Shown piece by piece: positions 15 through 37,998 of a stretch of DNA of 64,000 nucleotides. Positions within the stretch are counted from its first letter, which is position 1. Every line of letters begins with the position of its first letter. The stretch is from the NCBI GenBank assembly GCA_001779925.1, contig MFEK01000014.1, positions 1,011 to 65,010 of the forward strand, read 5' to 3'. The position numbers and the translations under genes are program-made. The DNA is from Candidatus Doudnabacteria bacterium RIFCSPHIGHO2_01_FULL_46_14 (GTDB lineage Bacteria > Patescibacteriota > Doudnabacteria > UBA920 > 2-01-FULL-46-14). Under the pieces are notes generated by a model, which worked only from the letters and a program-made list of their open reading frames with translations, searched no databases and was not told where the DNA came from.

Positions 15-3000
15 ATGCATAAACCTAATAGATCTTTTTCACAAAAGGTCTTTGCTGCGGGTTTAGCAGTTACCACTGCTCTCTGGGCCTTTGGCGGCCT
101 GCTCACTGTAGCAGGAGCCGTTGAAGCGCACCCAGCAGGTACTCTCGTTCTCTCTGGAACGACTGTTTGGCATGTATCCGATGATGGAACCATGCGCCAT
201 GGAATTGATTCCCTGGCCAAATTCCTTAGCCATCGCTACAGTTTTGCCAACGTTGTCCCAGCCAATTCTGCTGACCTGGCTTTGCCAGACGGCGGACTTT
301 TGGGATGGGGTTCAGGCGTCCTGTTTAATGATGGTGGTACTGTCTATCAAGTTTCCGGCGGAACGAAGCATGGCTTCACTTCTGCCGCGGCCTTCACAGG
401 CTCTGGCTTCAGTTTTGGCAGCGTTGTTAACGCAAGCCTTGCTGGAGTTACAGCGGGATCAAACATTAGCGACGCATCCATGGCCCACATGGAAGGAACA
501 TTTGTTGTTTCCAGTGGGACCGTTTGGAGAGTTTCGGCCACTGGCCGACAAGGCGTCCCGCAACCGGGAGTCTTGTACTCCTGGGGCGCTGGTTTTGGCG
601 ATGTAGTGGCTGCTAACAGCGCTGACCTTGCTCTGGCAAACGAAGGAAACGCTTCCTTCCGCACCGGAACTTTGGTCAACGATTCCGGCACGCTCTTTGC
701 CGTAACCGCGACCACGAAGCGCGGATTTCCATCAGCTTCCTGCTACACTGGCTTTGGATTCAATTTTTCCACGCCGGTCGCAGGTTCAACTGCCGGTTTG
801 ACCGCCGGAGCTAATTACTGCGCTGACGCAGGCACTCCGACCCCTCCGGGTCCAACACCTCCGCCAGTATCAGCGGGAACAGTATCCGTATCACTCGCGT
901 CTGACACTCCGGCTGCCGGGACCATTGTTGAAAATGCGGCCCGGGTTGGCTTCACCAAAGTCAATTTCACAGCAGGAGCCTCTGACGTGATCATCGATTC
1001 CATGGTTGTGGAGCGCACTGGTATTTCCCAGGACTCCAACTTTACCGACATCATTCTTTTGGATGTCTCTGGCGGTGTTTCAGTCGGAGTTGCTTCCCAA
1101 ATCGGGAATGAAAAGACTCTTGGCTCAACCCACCAGGTAACCTTTGCTGATGACATTACAGTCAAAGCGGGGACAACCAAATCCATCATGCTTGCCGCCA
1201 ACATGTCCGGCACCTTGCAAGCTGGTGAAACCGCTGCCCTGCGATTGGTCAGTGCGACGCCTTCCGGCACAGCAACCGTTTCCGGAAGCTTGCCGATTAC
1301 AGGCAGCACCATGACCATGAATGGCACTCTTGCCATTGGAGCGGTTACTATCGCAGCTGGTTCTCAGAACCCAGCAGCCACGACTCAGCAGGTCGGTATC
1401 AATGATTACATTGTTTCCGGCGTCCGAGTCTCGGCTAACTCTGTGGAAGATATCGAAGTCCAGCAAATGCGCTTCTACCAAAACGGCACTGCTGCTGACG
1501 GCGATGTCAAAGACCTTGAGCTTATGGTTGATGGCGCAGTAATCGCCACGGTCAGCAAACCGACGAGCAAAGAAGCCACCTTCAAACTGGCTACCCCGAT
1601 CGTCATCAAGAAAGGCGAAAACAAAGAGTTCAATGTCCGCCTTGATATAGTCGACGGGTCTTCTCGAACAATCAGTTTTGATTTCGATAAGAAAACGGAT
1701 GTGGTAGCAATAGGCAAGACCTATGCTTATTACATGACTCCGACTTATCCGAACGCGACCTCTCCGTTCTTCAACGCTCCGAACACCACGATTGATTCAG
1801 GCGCTTTGACCTTCTCGAAGGGCGTAGTTGCTTCCCTCAATCTGGCCGAAGGAGTAAACAGTCAGGTTATCGGTGCTTTCAAAACCACTGTCCAAGGCGA
1901 GCCGGTCCAGGTGACCAGACTCGTTTTGAACCTGACCGTTACCGGAACAGGAAATGGCGCTGACCTCACCAACATTGTGGTCAAGGATTCTGCAGGAAAG
2001 GTAGTTGCCGGGCCGATTGACGGCGCGGACAATACCGGCCCTGACGCGGCCACCACAACCGATACGATAATTTTCCCAACGGGAACTAACACGTACACGG
2101 TGGTAGCGAACATGAACACGGATTTTGCCGGCAATGACACTGTCCAGGTCGGTGTTGATGATCCAGACAGCAAAGTCACTGCAAAAGGCACGGTAACTAA
2201 CCAAACCATCACCGCCAACCCAACCTCGACTGTCACTCTCGACACTCTGACGGTAAAGACCGGCTCGATCCTGGTTTCTACCTCCACGACACCGGCTGCG
2301 CAAAACGTACTTGTGGGACAAACCCAGTTTACGTTTGCCAACTTTGTCTTGGATGCCACTTCTTCCGGCGAGGATGTCCGGGTAACCGCTCTGGCGACCG
2401 TCCATAGGGCAGTCAACAGCGACCCGACCAACATCGCGAACCTTACTCTGTATGATGGCACGACAGCGCTTTCACCGATTATTCAGCCAAGCGGCACTGT
2501 CTCTCCTGCAACCTCGACCTTCTCCTTTACGAATCCGATCGTGATTACCAAGGGTAGTTCCAAAACCCTCACGCTCAAGGGAGACATTGTTTCCGGGGAT
2601 GCAGACTCTGATACCCACGCTTTTGGCTGTGAAGGCACAGGCTGTGTGACCGCCACTGGTGCGTCCACCAGCACGGCCATCACTCCGACCGTAACCAGTA
2701 GCACTGGACAAACAATGTCCATCGTCGCTTCCGGTACGTTCACAGTAGGCGCCTCGGGAACTAGCCCGACACAAGGCGCGAACATCACAGGCAATTCCAG
2801 CAAGGTTACTGTGGGCGAATTGCTCTTCACCGCCACTAATGAAGATATTGATTTGACTGAACTGCATCTCGGCGCTACTGCCGTCAACGGCGGCGCGCTT
2901 AACGATGAGTTCAGCATGGTCTATCTGTTCGCGGGTTCAACCCAGGTTGCTTCCGCGTCTCCGACCACGACTAACGTCATTACCTTCCAGAGCCTTGAAG

Positions 3001-3833
3001 GCAAATTCCGCATCTACAAGAACCCGGCTTCCGGACAAAACCTGCTCACCATCAAGGTTGATACTGCCGCTATAACCAACCAGGGCGGCGATGGCAACAC
3101 AGGTGATTCCGGGGACGGCGTAAGCCTAACGGTCGCTGCCGATGCGTATGCCGGTAAAGGCATTGCGTCCGGATCGACAATCTCTGCCGCCAACAAATCA
3201 GGCACCTTCGACGGTCAGCAATATACGGTCTACAAGACCCAGCCGACCTTTGCCAGGGTTCCTCTGTCAACCACTTTGGCTGACGGTGATTTGGGCGTGT
3301 TCGCCTTCTCATTGACCGCTGACGCAAAGGGTGATGTCGGCTTCTACAAGGCCGCCTTTGAGATTTCCACAACGGGTGTGAGCATAACCGACTTCAAACT
3401 CTATGAAGAGTACGGCACATCCAATCAGCAGGATCTCACCACCAACGCGGCGCGCCAATCATCGGGCGAGCTGGCTGCCGGAAGAGACTATATATCCATT
3501 CTCTTGGATACAGGCACTGATGGCGTAGGCCAGGGCGGAGAATTCCGCTTCGTCGGCGCCGGTGTTACTAAGACCTTCCAACTGCGCGGAACAGTGGCTA
3601 ATGCCAGTGCCGGCGACAGTATGAATGTGGTTCTTAGAAACGCCACAGGCGTTGGTACTCACCCAGGCGATGCTGAAACCGTCGCTGATGAGGAAACAGG
3701 CCATTTTGTCTGGTCAGACTTGCACTACGGAAACTCAACACCAACTGCGACCTACACGGCCGAGTGGTTCAATGGGTACCGCGTGCCAGGATTGTCCGCG
3801 ACTTCTACACAGCAATCGCTGTCAAAGTCCTAA
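15..3833 (+). CDS. Giant secreted Thr/Gly/Ser-rich cell-surface (S-layer/adhesin-like) protein, 1272 aa
   Basis: N-terminal signal peptide (MHKPNRSFSQKVFAAGLAVTTALWAFGGLLTVAGAVEA). Three tandem ~80-aa repeats near the N-terminus (GT.V.SGTVW.VS..G...G....LYSWG.GFG.VV.ANSADLAL), then a Pro-rich linker TPTPPGPTPPP. The remainder is a long low-complexity T/G/S/V-rich beta-type region. Single uninterrupted ORF; antisense ORFs in the track are spurious. Confidence 0.75.
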   Translation: MHKPNRSFSQKVFAAGLAVTTALWAFGGLLTVAGAVEAHPAGTLVLSGTTVWHVSDDGTMRHGIDSLAKFLSHRYSFANVVPANSADLALPDGGLLGWGSGVLFNDGGTVYQVSGGTKHGFTSAAAFTGSGFSFGSVVNASLAGVTAGSNISDASMAHMEGTFVVSSGTVWRVSATGRQGVPQPGVLYSWGAGFGDVVAANSADLALANEGNASFRTGTLVNDSGTLFAVTATTKRGFPSASCYTGFGFNFSTPVAGSTAGLTAGANYCADAGTPTPPGPTPPPVSAGTVSVSLASDTPAAGTIVENAARVGFTKVNFTAGASDVIIDSMVVERTGISQDSNFTDIILLDVSGGVSVGVASQIGNEKTLGSTHQVTFADDITVKAGTTKSIMLAANMSGTLQAGETAALRLVSATPSGTATVSGSLPITGSTMTMNGTLAIGAVTIAAGSQNPAATTQQVGINDYIVSGVRVSANSVEDIEVQQMRFYQNGTAADGDVKDLELMVDGAVIATVSKPTSKEATFKLATPIVIKKGENKEFNVRLDIVDGSSRTISFDFDKKTDVVAIGKTYAYYMTPTYPNATSPFFNAPNTTIDSGALTFSKGVVASLNLAEGVNSQVIGAFKTTVQGEPVQVTRLVLNLTVTGTGNGADLTNIVVKDSAGKVVAGPIDGADNTGPDAATTTDTIIFPTGTNTYTVVANMNTDFAGNDTVQVGVDDPDSKVTAKGTVTNQTITANPTSTVTLDTLTVKTGSILVSTSTTPAAQNVLVGQTQFTFANFVLDATSSGEDVRVTALATVHRAVNSDPTNIANLTLYDGTTALSPIIQPSGTVSPATSTFSFTNPIVITKGSSKTLTLKGDIVSGDADSDTHAFGCEGTGCVTATGASTSTAITPTVTSSTGQTMSIVASGTFTVGASGTSPTQGANITGNSSKVTVGELLFTATNEDIDLTELHLGATAVNGGALNDEFSMVYLFAGSTQVASASPTTTNVITFQSLEGKFRIYKNPASGQNLLTIKVDTAAITNQGGDGNTGDSGDGVSLTVAADAYAGKGIASGSTISAANKSGTFDGQQYTVYKTQPTFARVPLSTTLADGDLGVFAFSLTADAKGDVGFYKAAFEISTTGVSITDFKLYEEYGTSNQQDLTTNAARQSSGELAAGRDYISILLDTGTDGVGQGGEFRFVGAGVTKTFQLRGTVANASAGDSMNVVLRNATGVGTHPGDAETVADEETGHFVWSDLHYGNSTPTATYTAEWFNGYRVPGLSATSTQQSLSKS

Positions 3834-3872: not shown

Positions 3873-3910
3873 CCCCCCTCTTCTTGAAAGAAGAGGGGGG
3901 TTGTTTTTTT
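3873..3910 (+). terminator. Rho-independent terminator after the surface-protein gene
   Basis: Perfect GC hairpin CCCCCCTCTTCTT-gaaag-AAGAGGGGGG (3873-3900) followed by TTGTTTTTTT. Confidence 0.8.
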
Positions 3911-3940
3911 GTAAAAATTTTGTTAGATTATTTATTATAC

Positions 3941-4639
3941 ATGCGCAAATACATAAAGATAGTAATAATCATGCTAATAGCGGCTGGCGCTGTGTTTGCT
4001 TTCACCAGACTGAATAAACCTCAGAATGATGAGCCGGATATAGAGGCCATGAAAGACAGCATTGCCGCGGACCCGGCTGTCCGTGCTGACCATCTGAACG
4101 CCGAACAGATTGAACAACGGCTGGCGCAGTTCCGTACGGCCAGGGATCAGGTGGTGGCAGCCAATTTTGACTCTTTGCAAGGAATTAACGAGATCGCGCT
4201 TCTCAAACAGCAATTAGGCGATTTTGAGGGCGCGAGAATCGCCTGGGAATACGCGAACATCATCCGTCCGAAAAACTCTTTGTCGTTTTCCAACCTCGCG
4301 GCTCTTTATCATTTTGATCTGAAACAGTATGACAAGGCTGAGAAAAATTATCTCATCTCCATTGCCAATGATCCGGACGACATCCCGACTATCCGCAATT
4401 TTTTTGAGCTATATTATAATGCAATCAAGGATAATGCAAAAACGGAAGCCTTGCTTTTGAGATCAATACAGAACAACCCTGATCGCAGTGATTTGTATGC
4501 TCTGGCCGGCGGTTTTTATCGGGATACTGGCAACATTGGCAGAGCGCTTGAATATTTTAAAAAGAGTTTGGAAATCAGTCCAAACAATGAAGCTGTGAAA
4601 AATGAAATCATCCGGCTGGAAGCCCAAAATAAGCAGTAA
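3941..4639 (+). CDS. TPR-repeat protein with N-terminal membrane anchor
   Basis: ATG at 3941 (MRKYIKIVIIMLIAAGAVFAF = TM helix); the track's TTG start at 3884 lies inside the terminator hairpin. TPR-like periodicity (ALLKQQLGDFEGARIAWEYANI..., LYALAGGFYRDTGNIGRALEYFKKSLEI). Confidence 0.6.
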   Translation: MRKYIKIVIIMLIAAGAVFAFTRLNKPQNDEPDIEAMKDSIAADPAVRADHLNAEQIEQRLAQFRTARDQVVAANFDSLQGINEIALLKQQLGDFEGARIAWEYANIIRPKNSLSFSNLAALYHFDLKQYDKAEKNYLISIANDPDDIPTIRNFFELYYNAIKDNAKTEALLLRSIQNNPDRSDLYALAGGFYRDTGNIGRALEYFKKSLEISPNNEAVKNEIIRLEAQNKQ

Positions 4640-4641
4640 AA

Positions 4642-6078
4642 TCAGTTTGGTTTCAGATAAACCAGCCTTAGGACATTCCCAGAGTAATCGGTTCGAATAT
4701 TTTCCAGAATCGATTCTGGCAGGTTCAGTTTTTTGAATGCTTGCTGCTCGATGACGACATATGACCCCGCCGGAATGTTCTGTCCATTTTTGATGAGTTC
4801 AAAACTCCGTTTGTTGCTGTAAAAGCTGATCGTATCCCAATAGTCGTATTCAAAAGCGTAGATTTTTTCCACATCGGTTTTCGTTGCCAAAAAGCGGCCA
4901 ACACCTCTTTCATCTTCAGAAATAGACTGGTTCACAGCCAGCTGTTTTTGTTTATTAAATCCGACATAGAGGGCGTTGGTAAATCCCGCAGTGAGCAGAA
5001 GGAATATTACAAAATAATATTTAGTGATATGAACCGCCTTGGCGCGGGCTAAAGAATCTGTAGCTAGAAGGCCGAGAAACAGAGCCATGAAGGGAATTGC
5101 TGGGATGGTATAGTAGAAGAGCTTTGTTCCTGCAGCAGCAAAAACCGTAAAGATAAATACCGCACTGCAGCCGAGCGCAAGGGCTTCTTTTTTTCGGCCA
5201 TTTGTTTTTAGCAGAGCAGTAGGTAAAGCAAGCAAACCGAGGCCAAAAAGAGCAAACCAGGGAAATTCGAAAAGAAAAGAAAATTTGAAATAGTTCCAGT
5301 TGGAAACTGCTTGTCCTCCGCCGATGACATTTTCACCAAATCGGCCAAGTACATGGTGTATAAAATATTCCTGCCAAAAAGCGCTGCCAAATTTTACAGT
5401 TTCGTATAAATGCCACGGCAAAATGATCGCGAGTCCCGCAAACCCTCCGAGCCAGAAATATTTGTTCTTTAGCCAGGAAAAATTTTTGAAAATGATTGAC
5501 CAGATCAGAATAGCCGGAAAAGCATAAAATCCAATAATGCTTTTAAACATTATGCCGACAGCAACACCGATACCTATTCCGATCAGCCACTTTGGATTTT
5601 TTAAGCCGCAAAGAAATGAGTAAAAAGAAAACATAATTGCCACAGTAACCGGAACATCGAGGCGCACCTGCCGTCCGGCAACGATCAGCGCGCCCATAGT
5701 TAAAAACATCAGACCGGTAACCAGGCTCATGAATTTATCTTTTGTTATTTCCCAGGCTAGCAGCATGATCAAAATAATTCCGGCGATGGAGAACAGGCTC
5801 GAAGGCAGGCGCAGAGAGAATTCGTCGAGTCCAAACATTTTTGATGAAATCATAGCCAGCCAGAAATACAGCGGCGGCTTTTCAAACCAGGGATTTCCGA
5901 GATGTTTAAGGGTTAATGGATCGGTGCCGGAGACGGTTTCCCTCACAACTTTTGCATAAATCGCTTCGTCATAGTCCTGCAGCGCGGGCTTGCCGAGTCC
6001 TGTAAGAAAAATTATCGAAGCCAAAATTCCAACACCTAAAAAAGCCAAAAGATAGCGTTTTTCCGGACTAATTGGCAT
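4642..6078 (-). CDS. GT-C fold membrane glycosyltransferase, PMT/ArnT (GT39/GT83-like) family
   Basis: About 11 predicted TM helices. N-terminal loop motif YDEAIYA (the DE motif of the PMT/ArnT family). C-terminal soluble domain. Confidence 0.6.
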   Translation of the reverse strand: MPISPEKRYLLAFLGVGILASIIFLTGLGKPALQDYDEAIYAKVVRETVSGTDPLTLKHLGNPWFEKPPLYFWLAMISSKMFGLDEFSLRLPSSLFSIAGIILIMLLAWEITKDKFMSLVTGLMFLTMGALIVAGRQVRLDVPVTVAIMFSFYSFLCGLKNPKWLIGIGIGVAVGIMFKSIIGFYAFPAILIWSIIFKNFSWLKNKYFWLGGFAGLAIILPWHLYETVKFGSAFWQEYFIHHVLGRFGENVIGGGQAVSNWNYFKFSFLFEFPWFALFGLGLLALPTALLKTNGRKKEALALGCSAVFIFTVFAAAGTKLFYYTIPAIPFMALFLGLLATDSLARAKAVHITKYYFVIFLLLTAGFTNALYVGFNKQKQLAVNQSISEDERGVGRFLATKTDVEKIYAFEYDYWDTISFYSNKRSFELIKNGQNIPAGSYVVIEQQAFKKLNLPESILENIRTDYSGNVLRLVYLKPN

Positions 6079-7159
6079 GGTAAATCAGTTCTTGATAAAC
6101 ATTTTCTGTTTTTTCAATCATCCTTGCGAGCGTGAACTGCAAGGACTTTTGTTTGGCGTTTTCCCCAAGACGCCGGGCGAGAATAGGGTCGCTTAAAATT
6201 TTGATAACAGCCTCAGCGAGAGCTTGAGGATTTTTTGGCGGCACCAGGATTCCAACCGCAGTTTCCTCCCCCCCTGTGGGGGAGGTTAGGTGGGGGGTAA
6301 GCATCTCAGGAACCCCTCCCACATTCGTAGAAACAATCGGTAATCCCGCTCGCATAGCTTCGAGAATCGTGTAAGGAAAACCCTCTTTGATCGAGGAGCA
6401 GGCATAAATATCAAACGTGGGAAGCAGTTGTGCCGCATCTGATACGCCGCTCACGATTTTTAGCTGCGCATTTGGAAAGTCAGCTTCGACAATTTTAAAT
6501 GCGGCCCGCAGGGTTTTGAGATCTTTGGTCGGATAGTCATGGGCAATCGTGCCGATGGTGATTTTTCCCTCCCCAGGCGTGGGGAGGGTGGTCGTTAGGC
6601 CGGGAGAGGTCGCAATCCCATTATGAATCGTGACGAGCTTTTCCTGCTTGGACAATTTGTCGGCTATAGCTGATTTTCTGTCAAATTCAGAGACAGTAAT
6701 AATTTTATTTCGAAATATTGAAGCTAATTTTTCCGCCCAGAAATAAATTTGTCTCACTAGAAAAGAGTTCGGTTCTAAAAATGCAAAGCCGTGAGCTGTG
6801 AACAAGACTGGTTTTCCAGCCAGCCAGCCTGCAAAACTGCCGATCACTCCGGCTTTGCTCGAGTTGAGATGCACAATATCTGGATCAAGCTCCCTGATCA
6901 GTTTTTTTAATTCCCAAATCGCGAGAAAATCCTTTAATGGGTGAATATTTCTGACGAGATTTCGGACTTTGAAAACCCGATATCCCTGATTCCCCAAAAT
7001 TTTCGACAAAGTTTCCGCATCATTGCCAATGGCTGCGAGGATTTCGTATCGATTCTTGTCCAAATTTGTAGCCAGATCAAAAACATAGCGCTGAGCGCCG
7101 CCCATCTCGCCTTGGGTGATTATTATGAGAATTTTTATCTTTTTGCCATTTTGACTCAT
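6068..7159 (-). CDS. Glycosyltransferase family 4 (GT-B)
   Basis: GT4 C-terminal signature E..GFPYTILEAMRAGLPIVSTNVGGVPEML. Contains two in-frame GC-rich palindromic inserts. Overlaps the downstream GT-C gene by 11 bp. Confidence 0.8.
   Translation of the reverse strand: MSQNGKKIKILIIITQGEMGGAQRYVFDLATNLDKNRYEILAAIGNDAETLSKILGNQGYRVFKVRNLVRNIHPLKDFLAIWELKKLIRELDPDIVHLNSSKAGVIGSFAGWLAGKPVLFTAHGFAFLEPNSFLVRQIYFWAEKLASIFRNKIITVSEFDRKSAIADKLSKQEKLVTIHNGIATSPGLTTTLPTPGEGKITIGTIAHDYPTKDLKTLRAAFKIVEADFPNAQLKIVSGVSDAAQLLPTFDIYACSSIKEGFPYTILEAMRAGLPIVSTNVGGVPEMLTPHLTSPTGGEETAVGILVPPKNPQALAEAVIKILSDPILARRLGENAKQKSLQFTLARMIEKTENVYQELIYHAN
6263..6300. repeat. In-frame GC-rich palindromic element copy within GT4 gene 6068..7159
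   Basis: CCTCCCCCCTGTGGGGGAGGTTAGGTGGGGGG. Its reverse complement matches copy 10741-10770 (CCCCCACCTAACCTCTCCCCTCAAGGGGGAG). Encodes TPHLTSPTGGEE in the gene frame. Confidence 0.7.
6565..6590. repeat. Second in-frame GC palindrome within GT4 gene 6068..7159 (linker region)
   Basis: CCCTCCCCAGGCGTGGGGAGGG. Encodes LPTPGEGK on the minus strand. Confidence 0.6.
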
Positions 7160-7282: not shown

Positions 7283-8113
7283 ATGCATGACAAGCATAAA
7301 ATCGGCATCGTGGGCGGTGGTGTGGTCGGCGGGGCAGTAAAGAACTTTTTCACGGAAGCCAAAGTCTACGATAAATATAAGAACCTTGATTCAATTGAAG
7401 AAGTAGCTTCCGCGCGCTTCATTTTTATCTGCGTGCCAACGCCCTTTGAAAATGGCCTGGATTTATCAATGGTGGACGACGCGGTAGCGAACGTTGTGTC
7501 TCACCTCGCGGACCCGGAAAATCAGCTTGTTGCTATCAAATCAACCGCCTGGCCGGGAACCACGCAAAGCTACCAAGATAAATATCCTGAGGCCAATTTT
7601 GCTTTTAATCCCGAGTTTCTTCGCGATAAAACTGCGAACGAAGATTTTATAAACAATGACCGGCAGATTGTGGGGTATACGAGCAAAACCAAAGACAGCC
7701 CCCTCGTGAAAGAGCTTTTGGAGATTCTACCGCGCGCGCCTTATGAAAAGATCATGCCCGCTGTAGACGCGGAAATGATTAAATATGCCGGCAATACTTT
7801 TTTGGCGCTTCAGGTGATTTTTGCCAATCAGGTTTTTGACATTTGTGAAGCTTCGGGGATCAGCTATGAGCAGGTGAAAGAAGCGGTGAAGGCGGACAAA
7901 CGAATTGGTAAAACGCACTGGGAGGTTTTTCATACAGAATCAAGCCTAGCCGCAAACATCAGTGATGCGTATCGCGGCTATGGAGGGAAATGTTTCCCCA
8001 AGGATATCAATTCGCTTATCCATGAAGGCCAAAAGATTGGAGTGGATGTGTCGCTCTTTGAGGTGGGCCGCGAGGTTAACCTCAAGCTAAATGGAGGCAA
8101 ATATGACAAATAA
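7283..8113 (+). CDS. UDP-glucose/GDP-mannose dehydrogenase-family protein, short form lacking the C-terminal UDP-binding domain
   Basis: GIVGGGVVG NAD fold; IKSTAWPGTT; FNPEFLRDKTANEDFINNDRQIVG; catalytic-Cys motif GYGGKCFPKD. Ends about 25 aa after that motif. Confidence 0.7.
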   Translation: MHDKHKIGIVGGGVVGGAVKNFFTEAKVYDKYKNLDSIEEVASARFIFICVPTPFENGLDLSMVDDAVANVVSHLADPENQLVAIKSTAWPGTTQSYQDKYPEANFAFNPEFLRDKTANEDFINNDRQIVGYTSKTKDSPLVKELLEILPRAPYEKIMPAVDAEMIKYAGNTFLALQVIFANQVFDICEASGISYEQVKEAVKADKRIGKTHWEVFHTESSLAANISDAYRGYGGKCFPKDINSLIHEGQKIGVDVSLFEVGREVNLKLNGGKYDK

Positions 8114-8909
8114 GCCTTCTTTCAAAATCGCCATTGTCGGCGGGGGAGCGGTCGGCAAGGCCATTTCGGCGTATTACGGGCGGGTAAAAATCTACGATAA
8201 ATATCATCCGGTGGATTCGCTTGATGAGGTCTGCGATGCTGATTATATCTTCGTGGCTGTGCCTACGCCATTCGATGATGCCAAAGGCCAGCCGGATTTA
8301 ACAGAAATGGATGATGTTCTGACAGTACTTGCCAAAAATATGAAACGGCCGGCCGAACAGGTGGTAATCATCAAATCAACAGTGTTTCCCGGAACAACCC
8401 ATGGTTATCAGGAGAAATTTCCCAGTCTAAATCTGATTTTCAATCCCGAGTTTTTAACGGAAAAGACAGCGGTTGAAGATTTCGCCAGGCCTGACAAACA
8501 GCTCGTGGGTTTCACATCCAAATCCGTCGAGTTTGCAGAAAAGGCGATGAGCATCCTGCCGCGGGCGCCTTACGAAAAGATCATGCATGCCAGGGCTGCA
8601 GAAATGACTAAATATGTTATCAATACCTACTATGCTTTTAAGGTTATATTCGGTAATTCTATTTATGATCTATGCCAGAAAACCGGCGCTGATTACGATC
8701 AGGTGCGAGAGGGTTTGGTGCGCGATAAGCGAATCATTGATTCTCATTTTGACGTTTTGCACGGCGGATATCGCGGTTACGGCGGCAAATGCCTGCCAAA
8801 AGATGTGAAGACCCTTGCCTGGTTTGGCAGCAAAAACGGCAAGCCCGTAAAATTTATCGAAACTATTATTAAACTGAACGAAAAACTGGCATGGCAAAAG
8901 CACTTGTAA
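8103..8909 (+). CDS. Second tandem UDP-glucose-dehydrogenase-family paralog, also a short form
   Basis: FKIAIVGGGAVG, IKSTVFPGTT, FNPEFLTEKTAVEDFARPDKQLVG, GYGGKCLPKD. ATG at 8103 gives a small overlap with the previous gene. Confidence 0.7.
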   Translation: MTNKPSFKIAIVGGGAVGKAISAYYGRVKIYDKYHPVDSLDEVCDADYIFVAVPTPFDDAKGQPDLTEMDDVLTVLAKNMKRPAEQVVIIKSTVFPGTTHGYQEKFPSLNLIFNPEFLTEKTAVEDFARPDKQLVGFTSKSVEFAEKAMSILPRAPYEKIMHARAAEMTKYVINTYYAFKVIFGNSIYDLCQKTGADYDQVREGLVRDKRIIDSHFDVLHGGYRGYGGKCLPKDVKTLAWFGSKNGKPVKFIETIIKLNEKLAWQKHL

Positions 8910-9805
8910 CCGGCGGCGCGGGGTTCATCGGCTCGCATATCGCGGATCGACTGATCAATGATGGTCATGAAGTAATCATTCTTGATAATTTTTCGACTGG
9001 CAAAAGAGAGAACGTAAATCCGAAAGCCAAACTCGTGGAATGTGATATTGCTGACTATGAGGTGATAGAGCCACATTTTGAAGGAGTAGAAGTAGTGTTT
9101 CATACGGCAGCGTTAGCGCGCATTACACCATCGGTGAAAGACCCCCTTCCTTCGCACGCCGCAAATGCCACAGGCACTCTGAATGTTTTGTGGGCGTCAA
9201 AAAATGCTGCCGTAAAAAAAGTTGTTTACTCCTCAACCTCTTCTATTTACGGCGACCAGGAGATTGAAGACTATCCACTCAGTGAAACTCTGGAGCCGCG
9301 ACCGGGCAGTGCTTATTCAGCGCAGAAATATATGGGTGAGTTGTATTGTAAATTATTTAATAAATTTTACAAGCTTGATACAGCAATCCTGCGGTACTTT
9401 AATGTTTATGGTCCACGCCAGCTCACAGAGGGCGCTTATGCAACAGTTATTGGTATATTTATCAAGCATCGCGAACAAGGGAAACCAATGACTATCGTGG
9501 CTGATGCAGGAGAAAGGCGCAGAGACTATACTCATATTTCAGATGTGGTGGAGGCCAACATTTTTGCATGGCATGCCCAGATTCCCAGAGGTGAATTGTT
9601 TAATATCGGCTGCGGTAAAAATTATAGTGTTAATGAAGTAGCTGCTATGATCGGCGGTCCCACGGAAAAAATTGATGCGCGTCCTTGGGAGTATCAAATT
9701 ACCTTAGCCGACAATTCTAAGGCAAAAGAATTACTCGGTTGGGAGCCGAAAATAAGTTTTGAAGAGGGGATTGCGGAATTAAAAAAAATACACAACCTGG
9801 AATGA
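8891..9805 (+). CDS. NAD-dependent nucleotide-sugar epimerase/dehydratase (extended SDR; UDP-GlcA decarboxylase / 4-epimerase-like)
   Basis: VTGGAGFIGSHIADRL Rossmann motif, catalytic YSAQKYMGE (YxxxK), about 304 aa. Confidence 0.8.
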   Translation: MAKALVTGGAGFIGSHIADRLINDGHEVIILDNFSTGKRENVNPKAKLVECDIADYEVIEPHFEGVEVVFHTAALARITPSVKDPLPSHAANATGTLNVLWASKNAAVKKVVYSSTSSIYGDQEIEDYPLSETLEPRPGSAYSAQKYMGELYCKLFNKFYKLDTAILRYFNVYGPRQLTEGAYATVIGIFIKHREQGKPMTIVADAGERRRDYTHISDVVEANIFAWHAQIPRGELFNIGCGKNYSVNEVAAMIGGPTEKIDARPWEYQITLADNSKAKELLGWEPKISFEEGIAELKKIHNLE

Positions 9806-9806
9806 C

Positions 9807-11015
9807 ATGGATAAGCCGCGCATTTTAATTTTCAGCATTGCATATGAGCCGCTGGTGGGCGGAGCAGAGCTGGCGATCAGGTACATTACTGATCGCATTT
9901 TTGATTATGAGTTTGATTTGATCACCGTGCGTTTCGACCGCGCGCATCCGAAACAAGAAAAAATCGGCAATGTCAATGTTTACCGGGTCGGTTTTGGCTC
10001 CAGACTGGGAAGGCTATTGTATCCGGCTTTCGCCCTTCGCCTCGCAAAAAAACTTCACAGCAAACAGAATTACCAAATCACCTGGGCAATAATGGCTGCA
10101 TACGCTTCTGCGGCAGCGCTCATGTTCCAAAGGCGTTTCCCGACTGTAAAATTTTTATTAACTCTTCAGGAAGGGGATACCATCGAACACATCCACAGTC
10201 GGGTAAAAGGATTTAAAAAGGTTTGGCAACAATCATTCAAAAAAGCTGACTATATACAGGTAATCAGTAAATTTTTGGCCCAATGGGCAGTCAAAGAAGG
10301 CGCGACTTGTCCGGTAGAGGTGGTGCCGAATGGGGTCGACTTAGAAAAATTCAAAATTCAAAACTCAAATGTCAAAATTGCAAATCAAAATTCAAAATTT
10401 ACTATCATCACAGCTTCGCGGTTAGTGCATAAGAATGGAATAGATATTTTGATTCATGCTGTTTCTAAACTTCAGACTTCAAACTTCCAACTTCAAATCC
10501 TCGGCGCTGGGCCAGAAGAAGCAAGATTGAAAAAACTAGCCGCAGATTTGAAAATCGCAGATCGCATTGAGTTCCTCGGCAACATTTCTCAGGAAGAGCT
10601 GCCTAAATATTTGTCGGAGTCGGACATTTTTGTGAGACCCTCACGCTCGGAAGGCTTAGGCACGGCTTTTTTGGAAGCTATGGCTGCAGGTTTGCCGATT
10701 ATTGGAACTCCTGTCGGCGGCATACCTGATTTCCTCCACCCCCACCTAACCTCTCCCCTCAAGGGGGAGAAAAATGCAGAGAAGTCCGGTATTATTCCCC
10801 TCCCTCGAGGGGAGGGTGAACCAAATGGATTATTTTGTAAAGCTGATGACCCCGCTGATCTAGCTGAGAAAATCAAAATACTGATGCAAGATTCCGACTT
10901 GAGAAAGAAATTAGGACAAAATGGGAAAAGACTAGTAGAAGAGCAATATTCCTGGGATATAGTGGACGGGAAGATGAAGGGGATTTTTAGTAAAATTTTA
11001 TATTTTAAATTGTAA
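9807..11015 (+). CDS. Glycosyltransferase family 4 with a 30-aa in-frame repeat-element insert
   Basis: GT4 motif EGLGTAFLEAMAAGLPIIGTPVGGIPDFL followed by the insert HPHLTSPLKGEKNAEKSGIIPLPRGEGEPN, then GLFCKADDP.LAEKI. Low-complexity linker KFKIQNSNVKIANQNSKF. Confidence 0.8.
   Translation: MDKPRILIFSIAYEPLVGGAELAIRYITDRIFDYEFDLITVRFDRAHPKQEKIGNVNVYRVGFGSRLGRLLYPAFALRLAKKLHSKQNYQITWAIMAAYASAAALMFQRRFPTVKFLLTLQEGDTIEHIHSRVKGFKKVWQQSFKKADYIQVISKFLAQWAVKEGATCPVEVVPNGVDLEKFKIQNSNVKIANQNSKFTIITASRLVHKNGIDILIHAVSKLQTSNFQLQILGAGPEEARLKKLAADLKIADRIEFLGNISQEELPKYLSESDIFVRPSRSEGLGTAFLEAMAAGLPIIGTPVGGIPDFLHPHLTSPLKGEKNAEKSGIIPLPRGEGEPNGLFCKADDPADLAEKIKILMQDSDLRKKLGQNGKRLVEEQYSWDIVDGKMKGIFSKILYFKL
10347..10400. 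repeat. A-rich CAAAAT-type low-complexity repeat inside GT4 linker (arm 1 of an inverted pair)
   Basis: AAAATTCAAAATTCAAAACTCAAATGTCAAAATTGCAAATCAAAATTCAAAATTT. Confidence 0.5.
10733..10822. repeat. In-frame GC-rich palindromic element (about 90 bp) within GT4 gene 9807..11015
   Basis: CCTCCACCCCCACCTAACCTCTCCCCTCAAGGGGGAG...CCCCTCCCTCGAGGGGAGGG. Two hairpins. Encodes HPHLTSPLKGEKNAEKSGIIPLPRGEGEP. Confidence 0.75.
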
Positions 11016-11049: not shown

Positions 11050-12723
11050 ATGACCAAGCTTCAAAAACAATTACTCGCCGGCATTTTATTGCTTGCAGCT
11101 GTGCTGATTTTTTTCCGGCTCACGCGGCACGACCCACTCGGCGATGACGCGCATTATTCTTTCCGCGCAATAGGTTATTTTGATTATCTTGGTTCCAAAG
11201 AGCAGACCACGCCCGTGCAGTGGTTCGGACACCGGCCAGCCTGGTCGTATCTGTCATTCCACGATCATCCGCCCCTGGTGTTTTTGATCCAGCATATTTT
11301 TTTTAGTATTTTCGGGGTGTCGTTGTTTGTGTCTCGTTTGCCGTCGGCCCTGGCCGCCCTGGGCTCGGTATTGGTCATATTTTTTATAGCCAAGCGCCTG
11401 GCTGGCCCCAAAGCCGGGCTGGCCGCCGCCCTGGCTTTGGCTGTAAACAATTATTTTATCTGGACCGGGCGAATCGCTCTTCTCGAAAGCGTCTTTATTT
11501 TTTTCCTGCTCCTGTCTTTTCTATATTTGCTGAAAACGTTTGAGGATTCGAAATATTTTATTCACACCGGTCTTTTTTTCGGCCTGAGCTTGCTTTCCAA
11601 ATATACCGTGCTGTTTATCCTGCCTGCGGTGCTTTTGTTTCTGGTCTGGAAGCACCGATGGATTTTTAAAAATAAAAGATTCTGGCAGGGAATGATGGTA
11701 TTTTTGGTTTTGTGCCTTCCCGTGGTGATTTATAATCTCATGATGTTCAAAACTCGGGGCCATTTCGACGTGCAGTTTGCGGATTTATTCGGGCAGGTTC
11801 ATAATGACTGGCCGAAACTCGCAATGCGAATCAGCAAACCTGATCCGAATTTTTTGGGCGTTTTGACCACGATAGCCGATGGTTTTTCTTGGCCTTATTT
11901 TGCGGCGTTTATTTTGAGCATTTTTTTCAGCCTGCATCTGGCCAGACGCGCTGCCGCAGTCTACCTTTTTGTTTTCGCGGCAGTGTCCTTGTTTTTCTTT
12001 TTTGCCTTTGCCGGCGGAGCTGTCCGGTGGATGGGAGTGCTGGCGCCTTTTGCGGCCCTGCTCGTTGGTTTGGCAGCTGCGGCGTTTGCAGAGCGTAAAA
12101 AATATCTTGCCGCCGCCGTAGCTATTCCGTTTGCCGTCTTTTCAATTTTTTATACATGGAACACCAATCATCTGAAGCGCCCGGTCGCAGGCCCGAATTG
12201 GTATGCCGGATTTCGTTTGGAAAATTACGGGTACAATCAGCTCGACAAGGAAATCTCAAAACTGCTCACTGGCAAAAAACCAACGCCGAAAATTAAATAC
12301 GCGACGACCCAATGGTGGTACCGCGATCTTGATGAAAAAGCAATCGAGTTCCCTATCATTAATCAAGGGGCAGGAGTTTTCGGCTCAGCGATTATCGTTG
12401 ATTCCGAGCACATCTGGTTTCCTATGTATTGGGCCAAAGAAAAATGGAAATTCTATCACCGATTTTCCATTAAAACCTCAAACGAGTTTTTGCAGGTTGT
12501 TGATGCTAAGGGCGGACTCGAGATTATCAATTTTGTGCAGTTTGATAAAATTTACTATTTTAAATCCGGCCCGCGGATCAGGGAGACCGCTGATTTGAAA
12601 TATGAGGGATCTGATCCGCTTTTTGAAGCGATTCTAAAAAAAGGGATCTTACCCAAAATCATTTATGACGACCAGGGCAATGAAGCGTTTTATATGTATG
12701 AAACAAGCGAGCTGGCCATATGA
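11050..12723 (+). CDS. GT-C fold membrane glycosyltransferase (PMT/ArnT-like), second paralog
   Basis: Polytopic membrane protein, N-terminal loop DDAHYSF (DE motif). Ends with TGA that is the first base triplet of junction element J1. Confidence 0.55.
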   Translation: MTKLQKQLLAGILLLAAVLIFFRLTRHDPLGDDAHYSFRAIGYFDYLGSKEQTTPVQWFGHRPAWSYLSFHDHPPLVFLIQHIFFSIFGVSLFVSRLPSALAALGSVLVIFFIAKRLAGPKAGLAAALALAVNNYFIWTGRIALLESVFIFFLLLSFLYLLKTFEDSKYFIHTGLFFGLSLLSKYTVLFILPAVLLFLVWKHRWIFKNKRFWQGMMVFLVLCLPVVIYNLMMFKTRGHFDVQFADLFGQVHNDWPKLAMRISKPDPNFLGVLTTIADGFSWPYFAAFILSIFFSLHLARRAAAVYLFVFAAVSLFFFFAFAGGAVRWMGVLAPFAALLVGLAAAAFAERKKYLAAAVAIPFAVFSIFYTWNTNHLKRPVAGPNWYAGFRLENYGYNQLDKEISKLLTGKKPTPKIKYATTQWWYRDLDEKAIEFPIINQGAGVFGSAIIVDSEHIWFPMYWAKEKWKFYHRFSIKTSNEFLQVVDAKGGLEIINFVQFDKIYYFKSGPRIRETADLKYEGSDPLFEAILKKGILPKIIYDDQGNEAFYMYETSELAI

Positions 12724-37050: not shown

Positions 37051-37998
37051 ATGACCAATAAAAAAATTTCAGTAATAGTGATTTGTTATAATGACGGCGG
37101 CAGCGTGCAGGAAATGTACCGGCGCGTTACTGAAAGCATGCGTCAGATTACTGACAACTACGAGATCGTTTACGTCAATGACGCGAGTCCCGACAATGCT
37201 TATGAGCGCCTTAAGGTGCTTGCAGAAAAAGATAAGCGGCTCGTGGTTATAACGCATACCCGCAATTTCGGCGGTCAAAACGCTTATACCTCGGGACTCG
37301 AGTATTGCACGGGCGATGCGGCCATAACGCTTGACGGCGATATTCAGGACCCGCCGGAAATGTTTCCGAAGCTTGTAGAGAAATGGCTCGCTGGCTACGA
37401 AATCGTTTATGGCGACCGCGTGGAAAGAGAGGGGAGCATCATCCGTAGAATTTTTTATAAAATATTTTACAAAGTCTTCAGTGCCATGTCCGCAGTAAAA
37501 ATGCCGCTCAATGCCAGCGATTTTGCGCTCCTGGACCGTAAAGTGATCGATGCGCTAAAAAATATGCCCGAATCCGGCCGGTTTATCCGCGGTATGCGCG
37601 CCTGGACCGGGTTTAAAAGCATCGGCATTCCTTATAAGCGCTTGGCGCGGTTTTCCGGCCGCACCAACCTGACTTTTTTGGGCAACGTGCGCTGGGCCAG
37701 GCTCGCGATTTTTTCTTTTTCCGACCGCCCTTTGGAATGGATCTCGTATTTGGCGATGATCATGACATTTTTGGCCGCGTTAGGAATCGTTTTTTATATT
37801 ATATTTGCGATTTTCAATCCCGCCCCGTCCGGCTTTTTGACTATTCTCGTTTCCGTATTGTTTTTGGGAGCCATCCAGCTTTTATCCCTGAGCGCCATCG
37901 GCGAATACATTGCCCGAATTTTTGAAGAGGTCAAGAACCGCCCGAAATATATCCGCAGGGAGATACTAAATGATTACAAAGGAGAAATAAAAAAATGA
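37051..37998 (+). CDS. GT2 polyprenyl-phosphate glycosyltransferase (ArnC/GtrB-like), paralog of 32952..33920
   Basis: ISVIVICYNDGGSV; EIVYVNDASPDNA; ITLDGDIQDPPEMFPKLV; two C-terminal TM helices. Confidence 0.8.
   Translation: MTNKKISVIVICYNDGGSVQEMYRRVTESMRQITDNYEIVYVNDASPDNAYERLKVLAEKDKRLVVITHTRNFGGQNAYTSGLEYCTGDAAITLDGDIQDPPEMFPKLVEKWLAGYEIVYGDRVEREGSIIRRIFYKIFYKVFSAMSAVKMPLNASDFALLDRKVIDALKNMPESGRFIRGMRAWTGFKSIGIPYKRLARFSGRTNLTFLGNVRWARLAIFSFSDRPLEWISYLAMIMTFLAALGIVFYIIFAIFNPAPSGFLTILVSVLFLGAIQLLSLSAIGEYIARIFEEVKNRPKYIRREILNDYKGEIKK

Follow-up and report, generated by a model that had tools for sequence, protein, structure and literature searches.

A two-domain subfamily of UDP-glucose dehydrogenase relatives typical of Patescibacteria, and its tandem gene pair in a Doudnabacteria genome

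Introduction

To our knowledge, all the UDP-glucose dehydrogenases (UGDH) solved so far, from bacteria to humans, are three-domain proteins in which the third domain grips the UDP. A family that keeps every catalytic residue without this third domain would demonstrate that such a domain can be dispensed with. The question is raised by two neighbouring genes of Candidatus Doudnabacteria bacterium RIFCSPHIGHO2_01_FULL_46_14, found in a stretch of 64,000 nucleotides of contig MFEK01000014.1 (hereafter the window). A first reading of the letters (the original prediction) had reported two tandem genes of the UDP-glucose dehydrogenase family, 276 and about 268 amino acids long, which end shortly after the catalytic cysteine, and had proposed either a genuine mini-dehydrogenase architecture or a new function. 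Are these genes the remains of ordinary enzymes or complete enzymes of a shorter design, and in the latter case, what would they oxidize?

Two intact, overlapping genes

The two open reading frames, called here A and B, are present as first described and both are assigned to the family by Pfam. The claimed FNPEFL and GYGGKC[FL]PKD motifs were located in each of them, the former at residues 108 (A) and 113 (B), the latter spanning residues 232-241 and 225-234, respectively. The two proteins share 46% identity. The features of the locus are the following:

4642..6078, minus strand: second PMT_2 / ArnT-like GT-C glycosyltransferase, upstream and on the opposite strand
6068..7159, minus strand: GT4 glycosyltransferase, divergent from A, in the conserved block
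7283..8113, plus strand: mini-UGDH paralog A, 276 aa, deposited as OGE78102.1, 'hypothetical protein'
7313..7330, plus strand: GxGxxG dinucleotide-binding motif of A, GGGVVG, residues 11-16
7991..7993, plus strand: catalytic Cys237 codon of A, in GYGGKCFPKD
8093..8097, plus strand: Shine-Dalgarno-like GGAGG within the end of A, 5 nt before the B ATG at 8103
8103..8909, plus strand: mini-UGDH paralog B, 268 aa, deposited as OGE78103.1
8790..8792, plus strand: catalytic Cys230 codon of B, in GYGGKCLPKD
8891..9805, plus strand: GalE/WbpP/TviC-like extended SDR, probable UDP-sugar 4-epimerase, 304 aa, overlapping the end of B by 19 nt
9807..11015, plus strand: GT4 glycosyltransferase following the SDR, kept there in A-clade loci
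11050..12723, plus strand: PMT_2 / ArnT-like GT-C membrane glycosyltransferase, final gene of the A-B-SDR-GT4-GT-C block

The longest reading frame for B (8091..8909, 272 aa) opens at an alternative ATG at 8091, but the ATG at 8103, which has the GGAGG five bases upstream, is the likely start. The location of this signal inside A suggests that the translation of the two genes is coupled. The window also encodes a PgfS/ArnC-like GT2.

The A and B genes are intact and are not pseudogenes. The stop of A (8111-8113) falls inside B and that of B (8907-8909) inside the following gene, whose start is at 8891, so that there is no room for frameshifted remnants. Six-frame searches of the whole window returned no C-terminal domain, whether the query was that domain of E. 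coli Ugd (best E 0.66), that of the full-length enzyme of another locus, L051 (0.62), or an HMM built from four C-domain sequences (0.74). The initial view that these are not frameshift fragments, and the frame inspection proposed along with it, thus came out in favour of complete genes.

Domain architecture

In A and B alike, Pfam recognizes the N-terminal NAD-binding domain (UDPG_MGDP_dh_N, PF03721; E 7e-18 for A and 2e-19 for B) and, over its full length, the central domain (UDPG_MGDP_dh, PF00984; E 3e-22 and 7e-23), and finds no match to the C-terminal domain (UDPG_MGDP_dh_C, PF03720) in either. The match to TIGR03026 ends at profile position 295 of 413 and its scores, 147.2 for A and 153.6 for B, do not reach the cut-off of 189.8, and every equivalog model likewise gives a score far under its own cut-off. 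The C-terminal domain announced as missing is indeed absent, but the lost part amounts to about 120 profile positions instead of some 100 residues, and the proteins end 35 (A) and 34 (B) residues past the PKD, not about 25. Likewise, the NAD-binding domain is kept as predicted, but with a deletion that had been overlooked: the PF03721 match starts only at profile position 69-73 and covers 69-181 of 187, and alignment to E. coli Ugd confirms that about 30-35 residues following the Rossmann strand β2 are missing in both proteins. In A, the conserved Y29-D30 pair stands at the end of β2, after the GxGxxG motif; GxGxVG is conserved as well. The reference made at the time to ManC-type dehydrogenases has to be dropped, ManC not being the name of a dehydrogenase.

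A large family of short enzymes

The short form is not peculiar to this genome. The best 120 matches are full-length proteins of 255-297 aa together with four fragments, all short and mostly from Patescibacteria, and relatives, counted as pattern-matched stretches, are encoded in at least 562 species-representative genomes, again mostly Patescibacteria/CPR. The best 150 cluster representatives (50% identity) each score above 222 bits, and their median length is 274 aa; against the family HMM, A and B score 420 and 375 bits, respectively. We defined the mini-UGDH clade by a length of about 255-295 aa, an end about 35 residues after the PKD, the deletion after β2 and an arginine at position -6 from the catalytic cysteine. 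A and B have all these characters and, in a tree with full-length outgroups, belong to the short family, which is monophyletic and in which their own clades are nested. Judged from these sequences, mini-UGDH is a large and conserved two-domain subfamily of predicted nucleotide-sugar 6-dehydrogenases, typical of Patescibacteria/CPR. The idea of a genuine mini-dehydrogenase architecture is thereby borne out, and the worry that short homologues might be absent elsewhere disappears.

Some members are longer, and we considered them as possible intermediates still carrying the C-terminal domain. They are not: their extensions are a GalU-like domain, an SDR, a GT2, an APS kinase, a Ddl, an intein (placed in one member exactly at the catalytic cysteine) or unannotated and low-complexity tails, and one entry, P0183, consists of ordinary full-length enzymes in tandem. 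The fusions with GalU-like uridylyltransferase, SDR or GT2 are all singletons or two-member clusters.

Catalytic residues, predicted fold and the UDP site

To map the residues of the family we used the catalytic set of human UGDH (PMC3184952). Among 98 sequences, T88, E111, K167, N171, C237 and K240 (numbering of A) are invariant, D241 and R207 are conserved in at least 90%, and the GxGxxG motif is invariant or nearly so in the short family. These positions map onto the human set, and both A and B conserve the catalytic and the glucose-binding residues. The human enzyme dimerizes through its central domain, its Arg260 binds glucose across the dimer and its residues 265-280 form a loop wrapping the UDP-glucose (PMC3184952); R207 of A aligns with Arg260, and the family has a loop corresponding to 265-280.

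The AlphaFold2 model of A is confident (pLDDT 93.8, pTM 0.90) and includes the long helix of the central domain (residues 160-191). In the PDB it is matched best by full-length UGDHs, with TM-scores of 0.78 (over the query) and 0.5 (over the target), and among the PDB matches we found no solved structure lacking the C-terminal domain.

In characterized enzymes the C-terminal domain binds the UDP ribose; in human UGDH this is done by Arg442, which adjoins residue 271 (PMC12493151). At position -6 from the cysteine, 280 of the 296 family members carry an arginine (Arg231 in A, with an equivalent in B), and 197 of the 296 have a lysine at -1, whereas six full-length enzymes present F, L or Y at -6 and Y, S or G at -1. 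This family-specific arginine, which belongs to the substrate-wrapping loop and is often joined by the lysine, may replace contacts lost with the C-terminal domain, such as those of human Arg442.

Comparison with known enzymes

The closest relatives by sequence and fold are the canonical Ugd/UGDH/TuaD/AglM enzymes (PF03721+PF00984+PF03720; TIGR03026; structures 4a7p, 3gg2, 3vtf, 1dli and 2q3e). Mini-UGDH shares with them the Rossmann domain with GxGxxG and the acidic residue after β2, the central dimerization domain with its long helix, the cysteine of GGxCxPKD, the Lys/Asn pair, the Glu of NPEFL, the Thr of KST and the trans Arg of DxRIG, and also the operon logic that joins the dehydrogenase to an epimerase or decarboxylase, as in Ugd-UXS, TviB-TviC and WbpO-WbpP. 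It differs by the absence of the UDP-binding C-terminal domain (about 120 residues) and of about 30-35 residues after β2, by the Arg at -6 and the Lys at -1, where canonical enzymes have hydrophobic or small residues, and by scores under the TIGR03026 cut-off.

Another two-domain form exists in phages, both in those of Campylobacter (for example CP220 gp019, of 256 aa, and gene 2-32 of IBB_35) and in the Microbacterium phage Fireman (262 aa). It shares with mini-UGDH the N-domain deletion and the end about 35 residues past the PKD, it has basic residues (K, K) at -6 and -1 in K-G-F-G-G-K-C, and the folds superpose with TM-scores of 0.73-0.78 over the full target length. It is nevertheless distant, with 25-27% identity and a score of 84 bits with the HMM of the CPR family; it has neither the VPTP motif nor the DxRI arginine, and lies beside a QueE-like gene instead of sugar-nucleotide SDRs. 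Its name of 'UDP-glucose dehydrogenase' rests on homology only (PMC3322345); our literature searches found no description of a UGDH lacking the C-terminal domain, the phage paper repeating the homology annotation. Finally, 6-phosphogluconate, 3-hydroxyisobutyrate and glycerol-3-phosphate dehydrogenases follow a similar plan of a Rossmann and an all-helical dimerizing domain, and such 6PGD-C-like enzymes appear as weak fold matches at ranks 5-7 of the viral library (TM-score 0.36-0.59), but they possess neither the catalytic-Cys thioester chemistry nor the UGDH motifs; this is a resemblance of layout, not membership.

Genomic context and proposed function

Around the short genes of 81 loci, an extended SDR lies within three genes at 45 and none at the other 36. 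The GalE-like type of the window, present at 31 loci, is the most frequent neighbour of the family. Probable UDP-GlcA-using types occur at 17 loci; UXS and ArnA-type decarboxylases are operon partners in 10 loci, ArnA/UXS-clade enzymes being found at +2 and one UXS (2b69, E 9e-116) sharing 22 nt with the short gene. At 7 loci the partner was labelled UDP-GlcA 4-epimerase-like by similarity to 5u4q, 6zl6 and 6kv9, a label on which the depositor names of 5u4q and 6zl6 are silent. A Pfam search with a 1272-aa neighbour gave no match. The SDR of the window itself resembles the UDP-Glc/GlcNAc 4-epimerases WbpP, WbgU and TviC; we rejected it as a UDP-glucuronate decarboxylase, since it carries STSS, not STSE, and its best matches are 4-epimerases.

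We consider it probable that A and B, two intact paralogs of the two-domain mini-UGDH that arose by duplication, are expressed and act as NAD+-dependent oxidizers of the C6 of a UDP-hexose. Each protein would most likely be a dimer held by the central domain, in which NAD+ and the conserved Cys/Lys/Asn/Asp/Glu/Thr set would oxidize the C6 twice to give a UDP-uronic acid. The substrate is most probably UDP-glucose, converted to UDP-glucuronate, as neighbours and fusions point to. Only the substrate-wrapping loop of the central domain would retain its UDP moiety, with the arginine six residues before the cysteine, often assisted by the lysine at -1, possibly taking over the lost contacts. From there the uronic acid would pass into a cell-surface glycan through the action of the GalE-like epimerase and of the GT4 and GT-C glycosyltransferases. 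Such a context speaks for ordinary conversion of a UDP-sugar into a UDP-uronic acid and does not indicate the new function once envisaged. Against this proposal stand the scores under the TIGR03026 cut-off, the binding of the UDP ribose by the C-terminal domain in characterized enzymes, the canonical dehydrogenase found next to a short one at locus L051, the small number of members in each fusion cluster, the label given at the 7 loci, and the SDR partner in the window, which is a putative epimerase and not a UDP-GlcA-specific enzyme.

Origin of the pair and alternative readings

The tree places A and B as adjacent clades within a monophyletic family whose members are all short, so the pair is the product of a single duplication, specific to the Doudnabacteria-like lineage, of a gene that was short beforehand. 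The tree rules out two independent truncations, and the original prediction of two independent short copies has to be corrected on this point. In all seven A-clade loci, down to 65% identity, B follows A with reading frames overlapping by 11-23 nt, and the whole A-B-SDR-GT4-GT-C block is kept. An insertion of 10 residues is conserved in the substrate-wrapping loop of the A clade; B does not have it, and its loop resembles that of single-copy members. Given this insertion, the two proteins probably have different substrate preferences or associate as a heterodimer, the two not being exclusive.

An obligate A/B heterodimer, associated through the central domains, in which the loop of A covers or completes the open substrate site of its partner so that the pair is the functional enzyme of this lineage, is a tentative possibility that we would not favour. 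The constant order and overlap of the genes, the GGAGG for B lying in A, the loop insertion and the active-site Arg that UGDH takes from the partner subunit, conserved in both proteins, would all fit. They must be set against the single-copy state of 73 of the 81 loci, which implies that homodimers suffice for the family, and two enzymes of a common pathway would be just as likely to be encoded in tandem with overlapping frames. Moreover, the paralogs show no complementary loss, and since both keep every catalytic residue, nothing requires a heterodimer.

We regard it as unlikely that the enzymes act on another substrate, either another NDP-hexose (UDP-GlcNAc, UDP-Gal, UDP-GalNAc or GDP-Man) or a non-nucleotide sugar (a sugar phosphate or a polyprenyl-phosphate sugar), in which case the domain that binds the UDP ribose would have been lost because UDP binding was no longer needed. 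The missing domain itself, the resemblance of the SDR to WbpP, WbgU and TviC, the different loops of A and B, and the GT-C enzymes and PgfS/ArnC-like GT2 of the window, which use polyprenyl-phosphate sugars, are compatible with this reading. So is locus L051, where a canonical full-length dehydrogenase lies directly upstream of a short one: the short form is then not simply the lineage's replacement for the canonical enzyme and may have a different substrate. Yet the nearest relatives are AglM, TuaD and Ugd (E 1e-20 to 1e-31, versus about 1e-10 for ManNAc/GlcNAc dehydrogenases), the glucose-contacting residues are conserved, trans Arg included, the partner SDRs are all nucleotide-sugar enzymes, with the UDP-GlcA-requiring UXS and ArnA-type decarboxylases among the operon partners, and a GalU-like fusion is known.

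The open cleft might also be completed by another protein. A dehydrogenase competent only within a larger assembly, either the A/B heterodimer with the loop of A as a lid or a complex in which the SDR holds the UDP and passes the sugar between sites, seems quite improbable; we know of no organism with such a composite or channelling nucleotide-sugar 'oxidase-epimerase' machine. That the short protein borrows a nucleotide-binding module in trans, from the adjacent SDR in a composite or channelling complex or from a C-terminal domain encoded elsewhere, is highly improbable. The SDR is directly adjacent at most loci, often with overlapping frames, and natural fusions of the short form with an SDR exist (P0129 and the 597-aa P0275), but adjacency and fusion of pathway enzymes are common without composite active sites. 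The partner, besides being missing within three genes at 36 of the 81 loci, varies in type (epimerase, decarboxylase) and place (+1, -1, +2). A search for a stand-alone C-terminal domain in the window and in 80 loci with ±10 kb flanks gave a single match, the full-length gene of L051, and a split enzyme with such a domain nearby is out within that range.

Lastly, the chance that A and B are decaying pseudogenes or truncations created by assembly or gene-calling errors is negligible: the missing domain and the scores under the curated cut-off would agree with it, but it is ruled out by the conservation data, namely an identical end point in hundreds of genomes and thousands of clusters, catalytic residues invariant across the family and identical proteins on up to 9 independent contigs, to which are added the confident fold prediction, the compact overlapping operons and the absence of remnants in other frames.

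Implications

The mini-UGDH family is abundant and strongly conserved, and stands in operons with UDP-glucuronate-consuming enzymes. If active, it would represent a minimal catalytic core for the four-electron oxidation. Should the short enzymes work only within a larger assembly, their counterparts of like architecture in Campylobacter phages would hint that the class is broader and has been overlooked. Curated models miss mini-UGDH, which scores under the family cut-off and is often named 'hypothetical', so that the reduced CPR/Patescibacteria may wrongly be recorded as lacking the pathways for UDP-glucuronate, UDP-xylose and uronic-acid surface glycans.

Integrity and domain composition of the two genes

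Both members of the adjacent gene pair, here called A and B, proved to be genuine open reading frames, as originally predicted, and their products are 46% identical:

7283..8113, + strand, ORF A, 276 aa
8091/8103..8909, + strand, ORF B, 272/268 aa

The start of B is most likely the ATG at 8103, with a GGAGG five bases upstream, within the 3' end of A. The exact proteins are recorded as OGE78102.1 and OGE78103.1 ("hypothetical protein", Candidatus Doudnabacteria MAG) and are present on up to 9 contigs. Pfam recognized in both the UDP-glucose/GDP-mannose dehydrogenase NAD-binding domain and a complete central domain, and no UDP-binding C-terminal domain (C-domain), in agreement with the truncation proposed in the original prediction. 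The two motifs it had named are also found in both proteins: FNPEFL at residue 108 in A and 113 in B, and GYGGKC[FL]PKD at 232-241 and 225-234, respectively. The stretch following PKD is longer than the 25 or so residues first estimated, with 35 residues in A and 34 in B, and a second deletion had been overlooked, of about 30-35 residues after the Rossmann strand beta2 of the full-length enzymes. A and B differ from the curated UDP-glucose dehydrogenase (UGDH) family, the NCBIfam subfamily model TIGR03026, on two counts: they have no C-domain, the alignment stopping at position 295 of 413, and their scores of 147 (A) and 154 (B) bits are under the cut-off of 189.8.

The stop codon of A is located inside B and that of B inside the next gene, which leaves no space for a C-domain remnant. 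Searching the six frames of the 64-kb window with the C-domains of E. coli Ugd and of a full-length CPR enzyme (from locus L051), as well as with a small C-domain HMM, gave no such remnant (no hit better than E = 0.6), and with full-length Ugd as the query A and B were the only matches. The overlapping genes and the lack of a remnant in any frame rule out that A and B are pseudogenes, and the earlier claim that neither is a frameshift fragment holds.

A conserved family of two-domain dehydrogenases

The short form is plentiful among relatives. Among 5.8 billion proteins, a word-indexed search identified 1333 relatives, the best 120 of which are all short (full-length members of 255-297 aa, plus four fragments) and carry source-given names of Doudnabacteria, Parcubacteria, Buchananbacteria and other Patescibacteria. 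When 1.84 billion 50%-identity representatives were searched exhaustively with a profile, 3301 clusters reached E <= 1e-30; the best 150 all exceed 222 bits, with a median length of 274 aa. Scanning one genome per species, we found at least 562 loci with a short-family relative, the majority in Patescibacteria. None of the longer family members has a C-domain, their extensions being other enzymes or an intein. The mini-dehydrogenase architecture suggested at the outset is thus that of a conserved, C-domain-free family, and that both are real we regard as nearly certain. A small number of contigs bear depositor labels of Chloroflexota, Dehalococcoidia or similar (all MAG taxon labels used here are the depositors' own); their short members (L029, L048, L053, L062) form a basal clade in the family tree, which hints that the short form extends beyond Patescibacteria or was exchanged between groups.

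The short proteins are of UGDH descent and are predicted to work in a UGDH-like manner. No description of a UGDH lacking the UDP-binding domain was found in the literature searched. The nearest proteins of the same architecture form an unstudied group from phages, annotated by homology only, to which about 15 related records of Campylobacter phages belong, as does a protein of Microbacterium phage Fireman (262 aa):

L082:1360-2130, Campylobacter phage CP220 gp019 (256 aa), UGDH-like
BFVD A0A7L8ZKG0 and A0A481VXA9, phage two-domain proteins, UGDH-like

In common with the CPR family, they lack the same stretch of the N-domain, end at the same point and have basic residues at -6 and -1 from the catalytic Cys (K-G-F-G-G-K-C at the active site), but are only about 26% identical to it and differ in gene context. 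In CP220, the gene of a QueE-like radical SAM protein lies two genes upstream of gp019.

Active site and substrate loop

Across 98 family members, the GxGxxG motif, the Asp after beta2, Thr88 (KST), Glu111 (NPEFL), Lys167, Asn171, Arg207 of the DxRI motif, Cys237, Lys240 and Asp241 are invariant or nearly so. Their equivalents in human UGDH constitute the catalytic set; in that enzyme Arg260 holds the glucose of the partner subunit's substrate across the dimer, residues 265-280, including Cys276 and Asp280, wrap UDP-glucose, and dimerization occurs via the central domains (PMC3184952). All these elements are retained in the short family, whereas the domain bearing Arg442 and Phe338, which bind the UDP ribose in human UGDH (the latter through its backbone; PMC12493151), is lost. 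The structure that AlphaFold2 predicts for A from the family alignment is confident (pLDDT 93.8, pTM 0.90) and matches full-length UGDHs best in the PDB, with TM-scores of about 0.78 (over the query) and about 0.5 (over the target). A solved structure of a two-domain form does not exist.

The family carries an Arg at -6 from the catalytic Cys in 280 of 296 sequences and a Lys at -1 in 197 of 296, where six full-length enzymes have F/L/Y and Y/S/G, respectively. Since residue 271 of human UGDH, a neighbor of the family Arg position, packs beside Arg442 (review of human variants, PMC12493151), it is plausible, judging from sequence position, that the new Arg stands in for the one lost with the C-domain. 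The same loop contains a conserved 10-residue insertion in A-clade proteins. One short-family member, P0239 (765 aa, encoded on an 8.3-kb NCBI contig), contains an intein, with a LAGLIDADG domain, exactly between GAGGY and CFPKD, so that the catalytic Cys is the +1 residue of the splice junction; inteins typically sit at such functionally critical residues.

One duplication and a conserved gene block

A neighbor-joining tree, distance-based and with no support values, unites the short proteins in a single clade that a long branch separates from the full-length outgroups; A and B fall into two neighboring sub-clades within this clade. This contradicts the idea of two independent short copies and indicates a single duplication of an already short gene. 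Gene maps of 81 loci (that of the window and 80 others), drawn by a simple longest-ORF rule, show a single copy in 73 and confine the tandem pair to the window's closest relatives. In the loci of three of the most divergent A-type proteins (65-68% identity to A), a B-type gene comes next, with an overlap of 11-23 nt, followed by a gene for a 302-304-aa short-chain dehydrogenase/reductase (SDR) and, where the contig reaches, by GT4 and PMT_2-type GT-C genes; the block is therefore kept in 7/7 A-clade loci. The loop insertion of A argues for a substrate preference different from that of B. That A and B form a heterodimer would fit their strict pairing with overlapping frames, yet we hold it to be rather unlikely; the two readings are not exclusive of each other.

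Genomic context and fusions

The context says nucleotide sugar, specifically UDP-glucuronate. An extended SDR is found at most three genes away in 45 of the 81 loci. It is of the window's type, a GalE/WbpP/TviC-like epimerase, in 31 loci, and of probable UDP-GlcA-using types in 17. UXS-like (UDP-glucuronate decarboxylase-like) SDRs occur in six loci, with the gene in L035 overlapping the short one by 22 nt and matching human UXS1 at E = 9e-116; an ArnA/UXS-clade enzyme is at +2 in four. Seven loci have an SDR of the L063 type, resembling 5u4q, 6zl6 and MoeE5, which we take to be UDP-GlcA 4-epimerases; this assignment is less secure. Further neighbors are GT4, GT2, Wzy_C, a Wzx-type flippase, DegT aminotransferase and methyltransferases. 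The short dehydrogenase is also fused to a GalU-like UTP-glucose-1-phosphate uridylyltransferase (P0194; TIGR01099, E = 5e-71, under the equivalog cut-off), an extended SDR (P0129/P0275; 597 aa in P0275), GT2 (P0123), APS kinase (P0121) and D-Ala-D-Ala ligase (P0252); as every one of these fusions is a singleton or forms a cluster of two, errors of assembly or gene calling may account for some of them.

The operon at L076:9923-15081 comprises the short dehydrogenase, GalE-like and ArnA/UXS-clade SDRs, a polysaccharide deacetylase and a FemAB-like protein, an order shared by L015, L034, L077 and L080, with a methyltransferase next in 4/5 loci; this order resembles an Ara4N-like or modified-pentose pathway. 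In the window, a 1272-aa ORF at 15..3833 (+), found with 3884..4639 (+), has no Pfam match; in about 12 loci its family is conserved at 2-4 genes upstream of the short gene, in most cases accompanied by a small TPR protein and frequently by Wzy_C (O-antigen ligase-like), and is a large uncharacterized component of the same surface-glycan locus. Two GT4 glycosyltransferases, 6068..7159 (-) and 9807..11015 (+), share an unusual insertion starting PHLTSP (PHLTSPTGGEE, PHLTSPLKGEK) directly after the conserved GG[IV]P[ED]xL segment. A GT2 at 37051..37998 (+), PgfS-like (E 4.5e-72) and similar to the undecaprenyl-phosphate Ara4FN transferase ArnC (E 4.4e-41), suggests, together with the PMT_2/ArnT-like GT-C genes 4642..6078 and 11050..12723, lipid-phosphate-linked sugars in surface modification.

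Proposed function

On the Magasanikbacteria contig L051, the gene of a canonical nucleotide-sugar dehydrogenase with three domains and 462 aa (8516-9904) lies directly upstream of the short one (9914-10738). Both forms thus share an operon and are not redundant there, which calls for some caution about the role of the short form. For A and B, we propose active NAD+-dependent UDP-hexose 6-dehydrogenases that would dimerize via the central domain, the sugar being held by the conserved pocket and the UDP by the wrapping loop and the new basic residues. We consider this functional statement, taken as a whole, fairly probable. The UDP-uronic acid produced by A and B would then pass to the downstream epimerase and glycosyltransferases.
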